Assembly: GCF_004010195.1 (NCBI RefSeq) | Contig: NC_057752.1 | Span: 480,405 to 500,404, forward strand | From: Chiloscyllium plagiosum | Taxonomy: Eukaryota | Direction: 5' to 3' | DNA length: 20,000 nt | Shown: one piece after another, positions 3,368 through 15,425 of the stretch | Layout of the letters: the number at the start of each line of letters is the position of its first letter | Numbering within the stretch: position 1 is the stretch's first letter | Notes under the pieces: generated by a model | Database searches by the model: none | What the model was told of the DNA's origin: nothing | What the model saw: the letters and a program-made list of their open reading frames with translations, nothing else | Translations under genes and position numbers: made by a program

Positions 3368-3949
3368 ATGCTGTACAGGGCCCTGGTGAGACCGCACCTG
3401 GGAATATTGTGTCCAGTTCTGGTCTCCAAATTTGAGGAAAGACATTCTGGCTAATGAGGGAGTGCAGCGTAGGTTCACGGGGTCAATTCCTGGAATGGCG
3501 GGACTATCTTATGTTGAAAGATTGGAGCGACTGGGCTTGTATACCCTTGAGTTTAGAAGACTGAGAGGGGATCTGATTGAGACGTATTAAGATTATTAAA
3601 GGATTGCACACTCTGGAGGCAGGAAACATGTTTCCGCGAATGGGTGAGTCCTGAACCAGAGGACACAGCTTAAAAATAAGGGGTAGGCCAATTAGGACAG
3701 AGATGAGGAGAAACTTCTTCACCCAGAGAGTGGTGGGTGTGTGGAATGCTCTGCCCCAGAAGACAGTGGAGGCCCAGTCTCTGGATTCGTTTAAGAAAGT
3801 GTTGGATAGAGCTCTCAAGGATAGTGGAATCAAGGGTTATGGAGGTAAGGCAGGAACAGGATACTGATTAAGGATGATCAGCCATGATCATAATGAGTGG
3901 TGGTGCAGGCTCGAAGGGCAGAATGGCCTACTCCTGCACCTATTGTCTA
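3368..3949 (+). mobile_element. CR1 LINE 3' end
   Basis: LYRALVRPHL.YCVQFWSP, RRLRGDLIE, RGHSLK, NFFTQRVVGVWNALP, then the 3' tail gaatggcctactcctgcacctattgtcta. Confidence 0.9.
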
Positions 3950-4600
3950 AATAGAGAAAGAACTCAGTGAATGTTGTCACATTGAAATTTAGAACTGGAG
4001 TCTACATCATTCCTGCAGTGGAGGAAAGAACATGAACAAACAGTGATCAAATCTCCCCTTTCTTTTAAACTTTTCACAAAAGCATTGTAAATAGTTTTAC
4101 CATATTCTCAAAACTACCAGAACTCTTATTATGTTTTTTCACATTTAAAGTTTGAAAACCTAATTAGTTTTCTCTGATGTAATTAAAATATTCTTTCATA
4201 CTGCGGGAGAGAATATTTACTTCAAAATGAAGGAAAGTACACGAGTTAAATAGTATTATATGAACGTTTTCTGGGAGAGTCTGTTTCTAGCACTCCTTGA
4301 CATATTAAAAGCAGTTCTAAAACTGCTCCTGCACCATTGTGTACATGTACACATACACACACCATGCACACTGTAGACCAATGATTCTCAAACTGGAGTC
4401 TGCAGAGACATTTCAGGAAATCTGCAGCACAAGGTGGCCACCCAGGACACCATAATCAAAAGTAAGGAAGGTATTGGCAGTCAGAGCTCATTGTCTGCTA
4501 GTGCTTCATCCAGAGGTGTTTTCTCAACTGTTTTTGCCTGTGGTGGCTGCCATTGCCTTTCACTGTCAAGGGCAGAGCAAGAAGGCAGGTCTCAGGTCTA

Positions 4601-4680
4601 CCTCATCCAGAATGGAAATTGAACTTGCGGTATTGGCATTATTCTGAATCACACACTTGCCACCTAACCAGCTCAGCTAA
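4601..4680 (-). mobile_element. tRNA-derived SINE head fragment
   Basis: Reverse complement has A-box-like TAGCTGAGCTGG and B-box-like GTTCAATT. Confidence 0.45.
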
Positions 4681-4734
4681 AAAAAAACCCAAAAGAACTG
4701 CAGATGCTCTAAATCAGAAAAACAGGAATTGCTG
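4681..4734 (-). mobile_element. Short PLE terminal-repeat tail fragment
   Basis: aaaagaactgcagatgct.taaatcaga...aattgctg shares the ACTGCAGATGCT motif of the PLE tails at 525, 7820 and 19930. Confidence 0.5.
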
Positions 4735-5039
4735 ATGAAGTGTTAGTGTTGAATAAGAAGGCCCGTTGGGGATTTTCTCAACTCACCAACAATCAAACTC
4801 TTAAGTGGTCAATTAACAAACAGTTAAAGCCCTCAACTCACCACCAGCCTGATTACCCCTGTTCCTGCATGCAAGAAAGAAAGGGGACTGGTTTCTGTGA
4901 CCTGCCTGCTCAGTTAGAGGGTCCATTTGCTTCAGTCTGAATCCAGGCATTTCAGGAGTGCCTCTGACCTCCCCCTGACCTTTGTCTTCCTACAAGACCC
5001 AAAAGAGAAAGACCTTTATTCTCATAGGCCACAGCAAGT

Positions 5040-5170
5040 TAGTCCACACTGATATTCCAGCAGTGTTGCACTGTGGTTGTGATGTTTTTTGGGTGAGATG
5101 GTAAACGGAGGTCGTTTCTGCCCTCTCAGGTGGATTTTAAAAATCCCATGGTAGTATTTTAAATAGGGGA
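5040..5170 (+). mobile_element. Deu-domain SINE fragment (SacSINE1-like)
   Basis: gtgttgcactgt...gagatggtaaacggagg...ctgccctctcaggtggat...aaaaatcccatgg.agtattt resembles the Deu domain. Confidence 0.65.
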
Positions 5171-5199
5171 TTTTTAAAATGTTTATATTCATCTGAAGT

Positions 5200-5515
5200 T
5201 TCCTCCATTTCCTCATCCTACAAGTTTCTCCAGTCCCCACAGCCCTCAGATATGTGTAACACTGCAATTCTAATTATTTGAGCACCCAAATTTTAATTTG
5301 CTTCACCACTGGCAGCAGCCTTCCCTAAGCTCTAGGATGATCTCTCTCTCTCTATTTTAAGAGGCTCCTTATAACCTACTTATTTTTACTAAACATTTGG
5401 TCATCTGCACTAACGTCTCCTAAGATATGTGTGTGTGTGTGTTCACACTTCTTTTAAGTACCTTGAGCTATTTTACAATGTTTTACAAGGTGCTATATAA
5501 ACACATTGTTGTTGT
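5200..5515 (+). mobile_element. Old L2-type LINE 3' end
   Basis: ttttaagaggctccttataacctac...tttggtcatctg...aaggtgctatataaa..cattgttgttg. Related reverse-complement copy at 12350-12795. Confidence 0.55.
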
Positions 5516-5847
5516 ACCCTGGGCCAGCATTTCCTATCCTTCCCAGTCTGAGATTTCCACCACTAGATTTCAGTCTGTGTCTGGAGCTGACCTTTGTGCA
5601 CTTGAAATATTATTGCTGTCATTTCTTTACAGGGTGCAGTGCATCGTGCTGAATGTTTCCCTCTAGCTATCAGCATTCTGAGGCACTGACATTAAAAATG
5701 GAAAAAGGATCCCTCTTGTCTTCTGCCAGAGGCCATGTTAAAACTGCCACGTTCTCTCCCCACCCCCGCTTGTTCAGCAAGTAAATTCAGCAGCCAGTGA
5801 GTAGGTGTGTTACATATGATTGGATGCCATTCTGTGTTGAAGGAGCT

Positions 5848-8425: not shown

Positions 8426-8527
8426 AGTCAGAAGTCACAACACCAGCTTATAGTCCAACAGGTTTATTTGCTCCTTCGTCAGGTAAACTGTCCATCCCAA
8501 TCCAACACCGGTACCTCCACATCATGA
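8426..8527. mobile_element. Short rearranged insertion of second hammerhead-type repeat (family B)
   Basis: Shares acaacaccag.ttatagtccaacaggtttatttg and the reverse-complemented tail tccaacaccggtacctccacatcatga with 14906-15099. Half hammerhead CTGACGA-A-GGAGC on the minus strand (8470-8482). TSD TGTATCCTTTGATAA (8411-8425) / TGTATCCTTTTATAA (8528-8542). Confidence 0.8.
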
Positions 8528-9544: not shown

Positions 9545-10597
9545 AGGCTATTTCTTGGCCCTTCTCGACCTAATTTTTTGTTTAAGTGCTTTTCTGCTTC
9601 CTTTATACTCAAGGGCCTTGTTTGATTTCAGTTTCCTAAACCTTACATATGCTTTCTTTTTCTTTTGACTAACCTTTCAATATCTCGTCAGCCAAGGTTC
9701 CCGAATCTTGCCATTCGTATCTTACCATTCTTATCATTCATCCAAACAGGAACACGCTAGTCCTGAACTCTGATCAACTGACCTTCAAAACGGTCCCACG
9801 TGTCAGATGTGGATTTACCCTCAAACAGCTGCACCCAATCGAATTTCTCATGTCTAATACTGCTGTAATTAGCCTTGCACCAATTTAGCATTTTCACCTG
9901 AAGACCAGTTTAATTCTTATCGATAACTATTTTAAAACACATGGAATTATGATCACTGTTCCCAAAATGCTTCCCCACTGAAACTTCGATCACCTGGCCA
10001 GGCTCATTCCCCCCCACATGTTTGAGTACAGCCCCTTCCCTAGTTGGACTATCTACATATTGTTTCAAGCAACCCTCCTGGATGCACCAAACAAATTCTG
10101 CCCTCCGGCACTAAAACAGTCCCAGTCAATATTGGGGAAGTTAAAATCACCCACAACAACAACCCTGTTTTTGTGAACATCTTTCCATGATCTGTTTACA
10201 TATCTGTTCCACTATCTCAAGCTGGCTATTTGAGCCCTCCAAGATATCCTCTCTTAGTACAGCTATGATGTTCTCCTTAATCAGTAAGCAACTTCCCTCC
10301 CCTTTTACACCCCTCTCCATCTCGCCTGAAACATCTGCACCTGGGAACGTTGAGCTGTCAGTCCTGCCCTTCTCTCAACCCAGTTTCTGTAATGGCTCCC
10401 ACATCATAGTCCCATGTACTAATCCAGGTTCTAAGTTCATTTCCCTTACCTTTTAATACTCCCTATCCTAAAATAAATACATGCCTGTAGTGATTGTAAC
10501 AAAGTCAGCCAAGTGGACCTCATAGAATGAGTTCCCTGATTGATTGGACCTGGTTAACAGCCCCAAAGAGCCCTGACTGACAGATAAAAACACGAAT

Positions 10598-11425
10598 CTT
10601 GCGGTGGGATCCCGTCCGCACTCACCCCAGCCAGGAAAGAATTTCACATTGGCCCCAAGGTCCCGTACTTCCCGTGGGAGCCTGTGCCCCACAACCTGAG
10701 CCGCCTCCGGAATTTTAATTTTGTTTCTTTCAAGGATGTAAAAAGAAGGGCCCTGTATAGACTGCTGCTGCACACCGTCCACCTCTTCTGCCTCATCCAC
10801 CATCCGGACACGCCTTGGCGTGCCCATTTGCCACCGGGCGGTGGGGATTCCCAGTGGAGNNNNNNNNNNNNNNNNNNNNNNNNNNNNNNNNNNNNNNNNN
10901 NNNNNNNNNNNNNNNNNNNNNNNNNNNNNNNNNNNNNNNNNNNNNNNNNNNNNNNNNNNNNNNNNNNNNNNNNNNNNNNNNNNNNNNNNNNNNNNNNNNN
11001 NNNNNNNNNNNNNNNNNNNNNNNNNNNNNNNNNNNNNNNNNNNNNNNNNNNNNNNNNNNNNNNNNNNNNNNNNNNNNNNNNNNNNNNNNNNNNNNNNNNN
11101 NNNNNNNNNNNNNNNNNNNNNNNNNNNNNNNNNNNNNNNNNNNNNNNNNNNNNNNNNNNNTATTTCCCCCTCCAACTCTATTTTGATTTAGTCCCTACCC
11201 TCCCCTTCACTATTTGATCACACAGCATTGCCTTTTGTGAAGGGCACTGCTTGTCACTGGCCACTCGGGTGTTTCCTTTCTTCCTGGTGGTGGAAACTGA
11301 ATAAAGGTTCATGCACCTTGTGTCTTTCACTGTGTCTCACACCTGCACACACACACCATGGGTGCTGGGGGTAAAAATAAGCACTACCAGAGTTAGGCGG
11401 TAGTGTGGGGGTTAAAGAAAAAAAT
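10598..11425 (+). mobile_element. Tx1-clade LINE 3' portion, copy A (contains the gap)
   Basis: ALYRLLLHTVHLFCLIHHPDTPWRAHLPPGGGDSQW is typical of the Tx1 ORF2 region before the C-terminal Zn knuckle. ORF end ISPSNSILI* (11191), 3' UTR and A-rich tail follow. Confidence 0.85.
10860..11160. other. Assembly gap (301 N)
   Basis: Run of n characters. Confidence 1.
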
Positions 11426-11441
11426 ATATAAACAGGAGCGT

Positions 11442-11497
11442 CCCTTTGATGTGAAGGGCACTGCTTGTCACAGGCCACTCGGGTGTTTAAAAAAAAA
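11442..11497 (+). mobile_element. Tx1 3' UTR fragment B with premature poly(A)
   Basis: ccctttgatgtgaagggcactgcttgtcac.ggccactcgggtgttt (also at ~11797-11843) followed by A9. Confidence 0.75.
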
Positions 11498-11512
11498 GAG
11501 AAAAACATGAAT

Positions 11513-11985
11513 CTACCTCCTTGTGGGTCTGCTCCTGGGCCTGGCCAAACTGGTCATAAACAGGTCTAGGCAGCAGGCCGTGGAGGGGGTCATTAGGGCC
11601 GACTGCCTGCCCCTCTTCTGCGGTTACGTCAGAGCCCGGGTGTCTCTGGAGAAGGAGCACGCGGTGGCAACCAACACCCTGGAGTTGTTCAGGGAGAGGT
11701 GGGCGCCGCAGGGAGTGGAGTGCATTATTTCCCCCTCCAACTCGATTTTGATTTAATCCCTGCCCTCCCCTTCACTGTTTGATCACACAAGCATTACCCT
11801 TTGATGTGAAGGGCACTGCTTGTCACTGGCCACTCGGGTGTTTCCTTTCTTCCTGATGGTGGAAACTGAATAAAGGTTCATGCACCTTGTGTCTTTCACT
11901 GTGTCTCACACCTGCACGCACACAACTTGGGTGCTGGGGAAAAAAATAAGCCTAACTGCGGTAGTGAGGGGGTTGAAAAAAAAAA
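11513..11985 (+). mobile_element. Tx1-clade LINE 3' portion, copy C
   Basis: ORF 11523-11756 GLLLGLAKLVINRSRQQ..DCLPLFCGYVRARVSLEKEH..LELFRERW matches the Tx1 ORF2 C-terminus. 3' UTR is similar but not identical to copy A; A10 tail. Confidence 0.88.
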
Positions 11986-12139
11986 CAGGAGTATCAGACA
12001 TCCTGAAAAAAAACATGAATGTCAAGGGTTCTGTTCATTCAAAGCTGGTTCTGAGGGAGCGAGATCAGTGTCAGGGACCTCCATGTGTAAATAAAGGGTA
12101 ACTTGGTGACGGGATACTGGCCTCTGTGGAGTTCTTTCA

Positions 12140-12356
12140 AAGCCAGTCCCACCATATTCATTAAACTGGTCCTGCCTGTCCATCCTATTAGACTTATTTA
12201 ACGTTGACTTTGTCCTCAAATCACTCCACATGCTGACTGACTGCTCTGTCACACCAGTTTAAACCTTCCTGATTGGCACTAGCAAACCTCCCTGCAAGGA
12301 CACTGGAGCCTTTCTCGGTGCAACCGGTCCTTCTTGCACAGATGTCCCACCTGCCC
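12140..12356 (-). mobile_element. Continuation of the 7266-10485 CR1: end of ORF1 (esterase-like) and inter-ORF region
   Basis: Minus strand reads ...SVLAGRFASANQEGLN at ~12258-12305, resembling shark CR1 ORF1 C-termini. Confidence 0.65.
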
Positions 12357-14574: not shown

Positions 14575-15425
14575 GATGGGAATGTGGGAAGGTGATCAGT
14601 AAGTTTGTGAATGACATGAAGATTGGCTGGGTGGTTAATGAGGAAGATGGTCTTAGGTTTCAGGAGGATATTGACATTTTGGTCAGATGGGCAGATCAGT
14701 GGCAGATGGTATTTAACCCAGAAAGGGGTGAGGTAATGCGCTTTGGAAGAAATAACATGATAAGGAAGTACTCAATGAATGGCAGGGCACAAGGAAGCTC
14801 AGAAATAGAAGGATCTTGGGGGGTTTTGTCCATAGATTCCTGAAGGCAGTTGGTTCATAATGTGTTGATGAAGGCATACTAGACACTTACCTTTATCAGT
14901 CATGATGTGGAGGTGCCAGTGTTGGACTGGGGTGGACAAAGTTAAAAATCACACAACACCAGGTTATAGTCCAACAGGTTTATTTGGAAACTCTAGCTTT
15001 CGGAGCGCCGTTCCTTCACCAATGAAGGAGCAGTACTCCGAAAGCTTGTACTTCCAAATAAACCTGTTGGACTATAACCTGGTGTCGTGTGATTTTTAAC
15101 TTTATCAACCATGACATAGATTAAAGGAGCAGGGAGGTTATGTTTCGGCTGTCCAAAACTTTGGTTAGGTCACAGCTAGAGTACTGTGTGCAGTTCTAGT
15201 CACTACACTATAGGGAGGATGTGATTGCACTGGAGCGGGTGCAGAGGAAATTCACCAGGATGTTGCCTGGGTTGGAGCATTTTAGCTCTGAAGAGAGACT
15301 GGATAGGCTTGAGTTGTTTTCTTTGGAGCAGAGAGAGGACTTAATTGAGGTGTATTAGAGTATGAGGGGCATGGGCAGGGTGGATAGGAAACAGTTAAAG
15401 GGTCAATAATAAGAGGGCATAAGGG
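14575..15425 (+). mobile_element. Decayed CR1 RT fragment interrupted by a palindromic insertion
   Basis: ISKFVNDMKIG, WADQWQMVFNP, LEYCVQF, LERVQRKFTRMLPG. Confidence 0.85.
14906..15099. mobile_element. Palindromic insertion of family B repeat with two back-to-back degenerate hammerheads
   Basis: Inverted arms 14938-15018 / 15022-15103. Plus strand: CCAATGA-A-GGAG-CAGTA-CTCC-GAAA-GC-TT. Minus strand: TTGGTGA-A-GGAAC-GGC-GCTCC-GAAA-GC-TA. TSD CTTTATCAGTCATGA (14891-14905) / CTTTATCAACCATGA (15100-15114). Confidence 0.85.

Follow-up and report, generated by a model that had tools for sequence, protein, structure and literature searches.

A solo LTR of a Gypsy retrotransposon in the shark Chiloscyllium plagiosum is interrupted twice by LINE sequence of the Tx1 clade, both times at the same short word just behind a TATA-like box. 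Does this arrangement reflect an accident of one locus, or a LINE family that prefers the promoter region of another retroelement? We approached the question from a single 20,000-nucleotide stretch of DNA (positions 480,405 to 500,404 of contig NC_057752.1), which we call the window and to which coordinates refer unless another locus is named. The genome as a whole measures 3.56 Gb and is rich in CR1-type repeats.

Structure of the interrupted LTR

The LTR extends from TG at 10486 to CA at 12139 and lies inside a minus-strand CR1-type repeat, seven other copies of which continue across the insertion point without an LTR. Its flanks, ATGCC on the left (10481-10485) and AAGCC on the right (12140-12144), match at four of five bases and constitute the LTR's own 5-bp target duplication. 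The LTR and its inserts are given on the plus strand. The 5' half of the LTR (10486-10597) carries the TG start and the TATA-like box and ends in the first Tx1 target duplication, the 12-mer AAAAACACGAAT at 10586-10597. Direct reading places two further copies of this target, both in the form AAAAACATGAAT, at 11501-11512 and 12009-12020. These two differ from the first by a CpG-type change, and the CG form of the 12-mer is also present in another locus, L042. The third copy opens the 3' half of the LTR (12009-12139), which holds AATAAA and the CA end.

Between the target copies lie two Tx1 blocks. Block A (10598-11429) consists of a 5'-truncated ORF2 end, a 3' UTR and an A-rich tail. Its two segments (10598-10859 and 11161 to about 11429) are separated by 301 N (10860-11160), where about 496 nt would be expected if block A is one copy. 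A spacer, AAACAGGAGCGT (11430-11441), follows, and then a 47-nt piece of Tx1 3' UTR (11442-11488) whose A-tail reaches 11500; full-length copies have this same UTR stretch as their 5' leader. Block B (11513 to about 11982) comprises the last 80 codons of ORF2 with a stop at 11754-11756, the 3' UTR and an A-tail, and is followed by a 23-nt sequence, AAACAGGAGTATCAGACATCCTG (11983-12005), with an A-run up to 12008. The window's Tx1 units differ from each other in their 5' starts. Pfam returned no match for the window's two ORF2 ends, and TRF found no tandem repeat.

A sequence-only reading of the window had recognized the broken LTR, the recurring 12-mer, the two blocks and the short third piece, and all of these stand at the positions it gave. 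The copies of the 12-mer are target-site duplications (TSDs), from which that reading left two further spacers unseparated. Neither AAACAGGAGCGT nor AAACAGGAGTATCAGACATCCTG agrees with the site of the window LTR itself, and both correspond to LTR copies elsewhere, the former being a common variant of the site that likely came in with block A, and the latter a piece of another variant, likely transduced at the 3' end from a donor LTR. The simplest and best-fitting history of the locus has two insertion events, both of which brought along a transduced tail. Because target copies two and three share the CpG-type change, block A was probably inserted first, and block B would then have entered the downstream target copy after that change.

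The sequence-only reading had also named its own potential undoing, a misassembly beside the gap, which we consider very improbable: the gap lies inside block A and is shorter than expected, and none of the read-derived contigs listed bridges it or the junction between the blocks, but the 3' junctions, including the AAACAGGAGTATCAGACATCCTG piece, are present in such contigs (those from two runs of one sample extend over 11916-12066, and those of a run in another study over 12006-12108 and 12093-12196), the two blocks are only about 89-96% alike, and the same architecture occurs at the gap-free loci L101, L114 and L287. Contigs of a second organism contain similar tailed spacers between Tx1 pieces.

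Two other features of the window deserve mention. At 14931-15110, two 88-nt inverted repeats (88% complementary) face each other across a 4-nt spacer; they are related to 8436-8527 and may represent a small non-autonomous DNA transposon or a pair of SINE ends. Between 584 and 1921, degraded ORFs that we take to resemble the RT/GIY-YIG end of a Penelope-type element are enclosed by inverted arms of 110 nt (95%), which lie about 1.1 kb from each other.

The host LTR family

Intact LTRs of the host family are about 235 bp long. The natural site, represented by TATAAACAGGAGTGTCAGAGG at locus L052, has an initiator-like word about 29 nt after its first T, a reading for which we presume the usual rule of TATA-to-initiator spacing. 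In three loci (L126, L127 and L130), paired LTRs stand 2.5-4.2 kb apart and enclose gag-like, RT, RNase H and integrase fragments in the order typical of Gypsy; the RNase H match has an E-value of 7.5e-8, and those to RT (0.011) and rve (0.015) are weak and lie below the Pfam cut-offs. By these features the host element is a Gypsy LTR retrotransposon.

Among best-matching copies, the LTR shows a similarity of about 83%, and of 80-85% between the paired LTRs of a single element, as compared with about 95% for Tx1. Since the LTRs are more diverged than the Tx1 copies, the Gypsy family looks older than the Tx1 burst. Most target LTRs had already decayed when they were hit, leaving the earlier idea that the LINE disables its host unsupported.

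Target preference of the Tx1 family

We tabulated the surroundings of Tx1 copies genome-wide with an internal ORF2 query, on which the main count rests in place of a first 3' UTR query that held 14 nt of flank. From the 40 best-scoring matches we took 35 at 10 kb, leaving out the window itself, three short contigs and one match inside another locus. All targeting counts given here derive in the same way from the 40 best-scoring matches of a search and are not a census. The Tx1 array adjoins the LTR site in 20 of the 35 loci (57%), and both halves of the LTR are visible in eight. The scripted tally includes L097, where the LTR is inverted, and omits L113; exchanging the two by eye leaves the total at 20. 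In a control search with the 3' end of CR1, which belongs to a different clade and is not a second Tx1 family, none of the 29 best-matching loci adjoined the LTR site. Best matches that are 5'-complete gave a similar picture to the main count, with 22 of 34 at the site. Counted by eye from the LTR side, a tailed insert occupies the target spot in 4/29 and 8/29 LTRs of two sets. Inserts at the LTR site always have the orientation of the LTR.

The remaining 15 loci lack an LTR at the array edge. Ten of them are clearly off-site, with clean TSDs of 10-17 bp, and the rest are ended by gaps or by the 10-kb limit. Off-site copies sit at A-rich spots, several of their TSDs resemble the LTR site, and two of the ten lie in or beside a Gypsy internal region. 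The family also carries the marks of target-primed reverse transcription (TPRT), namely an A-rich tail, 5' truncation and TSDs. These data support a strong preference of the Tx1 family for the TATA-adjacent site of the LTR. The flank tabulation that the sequence-only reading had proposed thus bore out its claim of targeting (20/35 against 0/29), while the ten off-site loci spoke against strict specificity.

Could such a distribution arise without targeting? A single Tx1-in-LTR insertion might have been spread by Gypsy itself, or Tx1 copies with a liking for A-rich DNA might simply have survived in neutral repeats. The A-rich off-site copies fit such a history, as does the abundance of the LTR, with more than 2000 first-look candidates. 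However, the points of 5' truncation vary from locus to locus, and in L130 and L110 an element's paired LTRs do not match in content, one being filled and its partner either intact or holding something else; both observations argue against hitchhiking with a Gypsy element. The insertions also occupy a single position in a single orientation, the controls gave 0/29, and the LTRs are more diverged than their inserts. An absence of real targeting is already largely refuted, and we give it very little credence.

The spacers inside the arrays carry a record of repeated use of the site. In 9 of 14 cases the inner spacers are the odd site variant of their own host LTR (permutation mean 0.46, maximum 4). 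Because they repeat host-specific mutations, most spacers are true TSDs, left by repeated local insertion into LTRs that were already mutated.

Several loci depart from the common pattern. At L116 (G000:C41:17406593-17416592), a Tx1 copy lies inside a satellite of short period, the repeat unit of which opens with a sequence similar to the LTR target. Loci L097, L105, L108 and L277 contain Tx1 units in inverted orientation or arrays arranged head to head, some of them beside Gypsy sequence, which may stem from twin priming or later inversion. At L142 (434-753, oriented), where a 45-nt piece of Tx1 UTR occupies the site, some 40 nt of upstream LTR are duplicated behind it, far more than in the usual TSD.

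Domain architecture and 5' ends of the LINE

Natural long copies of the Tx1 element measure about 6.5-7 kb. In three of them (L109, L113 and L122) we found the endonuclease (PF03372) and RT (PF00078) domains along with a zf-RVT match, and in ORF2 the APE endonuclease precedes the RT. For the endonuclease domain, L113 offers an open frame of 365 aa. A CCHC knuckle (C-x2-C-x4-H-x4-C) is encoded at the ORF1 position in 24 of 37 5'-complete loci. The ORF2 product is 47% identical to that of Xenopus Tx1L (E-value 2.9e-179). In a midpoint-rooted RT tree of 37 rows, in which the query row was flagged for unusual composition, it falls with Tx1L, turtle and stingray rows into an 8-row clade (support 100/99), the nearest relative found being from stingray. 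The LINE is a member of the Tx1 clade, as the sequence-only reading had assumed when it asked for an RT phylogeny. At L151 (1600-1800, oriented), a more diverged Tx1-like 3' UTR occupies the LTR site, which suggests that a related, older family shared this target.

The 5' ends of these elements are unusual. Of 30 copies that keep the 5' UTR, 29 are preceded, without an intervening tail, by the element's own ORF2 end and the first ~95 nt of its 3' UTR; the remaining copy has LTR sequence in front. This leader varies in length from about 30 to 630 nt, and at L267 a whole Tx1 copy is fused head to tail. A 5' end that repeats the element's own 3' region to a variable extent is a TART-like terminal repeat. 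We considered whether each leader was copied from the tail of the same copy. By rank this was not supported, since a leader's own tail does not consistently come first (ranks 4, 3, 16, 8, 3, 15, 17, 3, 14, 5 and 1 of 16-18); the agreement at leader/own-tail diagnostic sites (84/126 against 68 expected) is similar to the excess seen for any sequences of the same locus.

The head of the 5' UTR resembles the LTR downstream of its TATA box (alignment scores of 41-49 against a shuffle maximum of 36), and at L092 and L219 LTR sequence passes straight into a Tx1 copy. From these resemblances it is plausible that Tx1 uses the LTR promoter. In one of two RNA runs, a poly(A) single-cell run, 1938 reads matched 11300-12200 at an identity of at least 88%. 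They are about 20- to 100-fold sense-biased over the 3' UTR and show A-rich loose ends at the canonical 3' end. Six of the 1938 match the window locus at 99% or more, and almost none cross the window's 3' junction. The reads may stem from internal priming on genomic A-tracts.

Foreign spacers and passengers

Foreign spacers like those of the window also occur away from the LTR site. The off-site copies at L095, L107, L112 and L120 contain LTR-type spacers inside their arrays. Such spacers could only have come with RNA, so read-through transcripts from donors residing in LTRs were likely copied as blocks. The window's two foreign spacers were likely carried in by read-through RNA as well.

Tx1 is not the only sequence delivered to the site. 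A passenger repeat adjoins the LTR site in 19 of its 29 best-matching loci, where it is intermixed with Tx1 units, and it is abundant in the genome (2043 first-look candidates). Its longest copy continues directly from LTR position 189, contains GC-rich internal sub-repeats and ends in AATAAA and an A-tail. That copy, of about 2 kb (L251, oriented 3667-5731; minus strand of G000:C43, about 2709770-2711833), is non-coding, without a long ORF; this full-length copy contains no Tx1-like ORF and gave no Tx1 match. At L165 (560-1340; locus G000:C20:29179987-29183130), an intronless ferritin-like copy with an A-tail (PF00210, E-value 1.5e-4) lies directly after the LTR target and upstream of passenger pieces. 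This copy is frameshifted and interrupted by stops. At L149, the target site holds a tailed piece of the LTR's own downstream region.

This assortment points to relaxed recognition of poly(A) RNA, with the target set by the protein. Within that protein the endonuclease likely determines specificity, judging indirectly from the off-site TSDs that resemble the site and from the unrelated mRNA that landed there.

Growth of the arrays

We compared 203 spacer-defined units, counting a pair as having the same start if their 5' starts fall within 2 nt. The same start is shared by 79 of 410 same-locus pairs, as opposed to 231 of 20093 pairs between loci (permutation mean 6.2, maximum 18), and 27 of 48 multi-unit loci hold at least one such pair. 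At 32 non-CpG diagnostic sites, same-start pairs agree at a rate of 0.76 (0.55 expected) and different-start pairs at 0.61, and same-start agreement is above expectation in 28 of 35 loci. Same-start pairs also share 66 of 524 rare alleles where about 10 are expected, a count of non-independent pairs made with edges trimmed and pairs more than 97% identical dropped. The signal is confined to diagnostic and rare alleles, as same-start pairs show no excess of overall identity over region-matched cross-locus pairs. Arrays partly copy their own units, and both RNA and DNA routes fit. Chimeric units, with a 5' part taken from neighbouring DNA, were also considered and set aside: concordance shows no clear fall with distance from the start (0.83, 0.75, 0.76, 0.70, 0.79).

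By an RNA route, a read-through transcript of the array would be copied back into the same locus, its cDNA pairing with the duplicated target there to give an exact 5' junction and a variable 3' end. Nine pairs in eight loci have just this form, with the same start, different 3' ends and a tail on each, and they share five rare alleles where 0.9 are expected. At L101 and L266 the LTR-adjacent first unit has a junction identical to those of inner units, in 10 of 27 loci a leader begins at the same point as a neighbour (permutation mean 1.8, maximum 6), and cross-locus same-start pairs show little excess (41 shared rare alleles against 32 expected). Yet this decisive set is small, concordance is 0.76 and not near 1, and the region-matched test of overall identity showed no excess. 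A transcription start ~30 nt behind the TATA box would moreover leave the target duplication out of the RNA, so that a start further upstream would be needed. We regard self-feeding through RNA as possible and rather unlikely.

Growth at the DNA level fares somewhat better, at a little under even odds. Here a few targeted insertions would produce dimers, and unequal exchange or gene conversion would then duplicate units and fuse upstream units onto full-length copies, which would account both for the shared 5' breakpoints and for the variability of the leaders, a mechanism put forward for R1 arrays in bioRxiv 10.1101/158386. This precedent, the excess of shared 5' starts and rare alleles within loci and the roughly even concordance along the unit are all consistent with such exchange. 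The 3' ends differ in 52 of the 79 same-start pairs, which speaks against simple duplication, although many of the differing ends lie at an internal A-run, where slippage could act. Just 1 of 61 same-start pairs is more than 98% identical, so duplication is not ongoing. Unequal exchange also leaves the foreign spacers, the passenger and the ferritin copy unexplained; it would supplement targeting rather than replace it.

A model of promoter-adjacent insertion

Taken as a whole, the data are best explained by an LTR-targeting Tx1 LINE with site regeneration, passengers and array growth, a reading to which we assign a probability of roughly 85%. The Tx1 element would preferentially enter LTRs of an old Gypsy family in their own direction, a few bases downstream of the TATA-like box, its endonuclease likely recognizing the A-rich site and reverse transcription being primed there. 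Each insertion duplicates 10-17 bp. The duplication would regenerate the site behind the new A-tail, where it can be hit again, so that arrays form. Almost any poly(A) RNA is likely acceptable to the machinery, including Tx1 fragments, read-through RNA with donor spacers, the passenger and ferritin mRNA; all of these are seen at the site, presumably with mobilization in trans. Given its LTR-like 5' UTR head and variable 5' leader, the LINE is likely transcribed from the LTR promoter or by read-through from it. Units within arrays are related, and the arrays would further copy them by an RNA or DNA route.

More tentatively, and with doubts that outweigh our confidence, thousands of dead Gypsy LTR promoters may serve as self-feeding landing pads. 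The LINE would take its 5' end from the LTR, insert between TATA box and start site, rebuild a TART-like leader and have the RNA of the locus copied back, while passengers and mRNA copies would be dropped behind a ready-made promoter, providing a targeted route to retrogenes.

Relation to known systems

The sequence-only reading knew of no description of this pairing, which does not hold at the level of the family: the main text of Kojima 2015 (PMC4494074) presents two crocodilian Tx1 families, Tx1-8_Crp and Tx1-4_AMi, that prefer specific LTR retrotransposons. That paper regards a Tx1 family as target-specific if one sequence type makes up more than 20% of flanks, and the shark family, at 57% among best matches only, lies above this threshold. 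The main text gives neither site nor orientation for the crocodilian families, and the shark family is set apart from them by description and not by a tree, through its one TATA-adjacent Gypsy LTR site, its LTR-like 5' UTR head and its 5' repeat of the 3' region. Tx1-Mar and SINEU, described in the same text, insert in Mariner-N4_AMi as tandems that sandwich the TSD, with 5' extensions derived from the flank and proposed transcription from it. They share with the shark system a transposon target, non-autonomous passengers that use this target, TSD-separated tandems, target-derived 5' extensions and the proposed transcription from the flank. In contrast, their target is a DNA transposon and their passengers have snRNA heads, whereas the shark site harbors a 2-kb passenger with an LTR-derived head and a captured mRNA copy. 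Tx1L of Xenopus laevis, which inserts in Tx1D as described there, likewise has two ORFs with an APE endonuclease and RT and a transposon target, in addition to its 47% ORF2 identity and its place in the same well-supported clade, but that target is a piggyBac-type DNA transposon and not an LTR promoter.

Outside the clade, Drosophila TART has a 5' end that directly repeats a 3' region and reaches upstream to a variable extent, which PMC1636488 attributes to read-through or a template jump. TART resembles the shark LINE in this repeat and differs in its clade and telomere target, and overall identity shows no closer match of the shark leader to its own tail. R1 likewise forms TSD-separated arrays, by double insertion and unequal exchange according to the text of bioRxiv 10.1101/158386, though it belongs to a different clade and targets rDNA. 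The open-access literature that we covered, as distinct from Repbase Reports and most subscription journals, yielded no report of Tx1 at an LTR TATA box, of shared breakpoints in such arrays or of a TART-like leader in Tx1.

A preference of Tx1 elements for transposons, which figure among the known targets of the clade in the text of PMC4640811, and for LTR retrotransposons in particular, is thus already known, and our core claim extends this catalogue. Beyond the known habit, the shark family adds foreign spacers, an LTR-derived head, a TART-like leader, an LTR-headed passenger, mRNA capture and local self-copying. With one short, defined promoter target and many copies, the specificity of the endonuclease is directly testable. 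The delivery of unrelated poly(A) RNAs to the site bears on the birth of retrogenes and on tools for site-specific insertion, and the arrays preserve traces of local copying, along with a TART-like leader in the LINE of a vertebrate.
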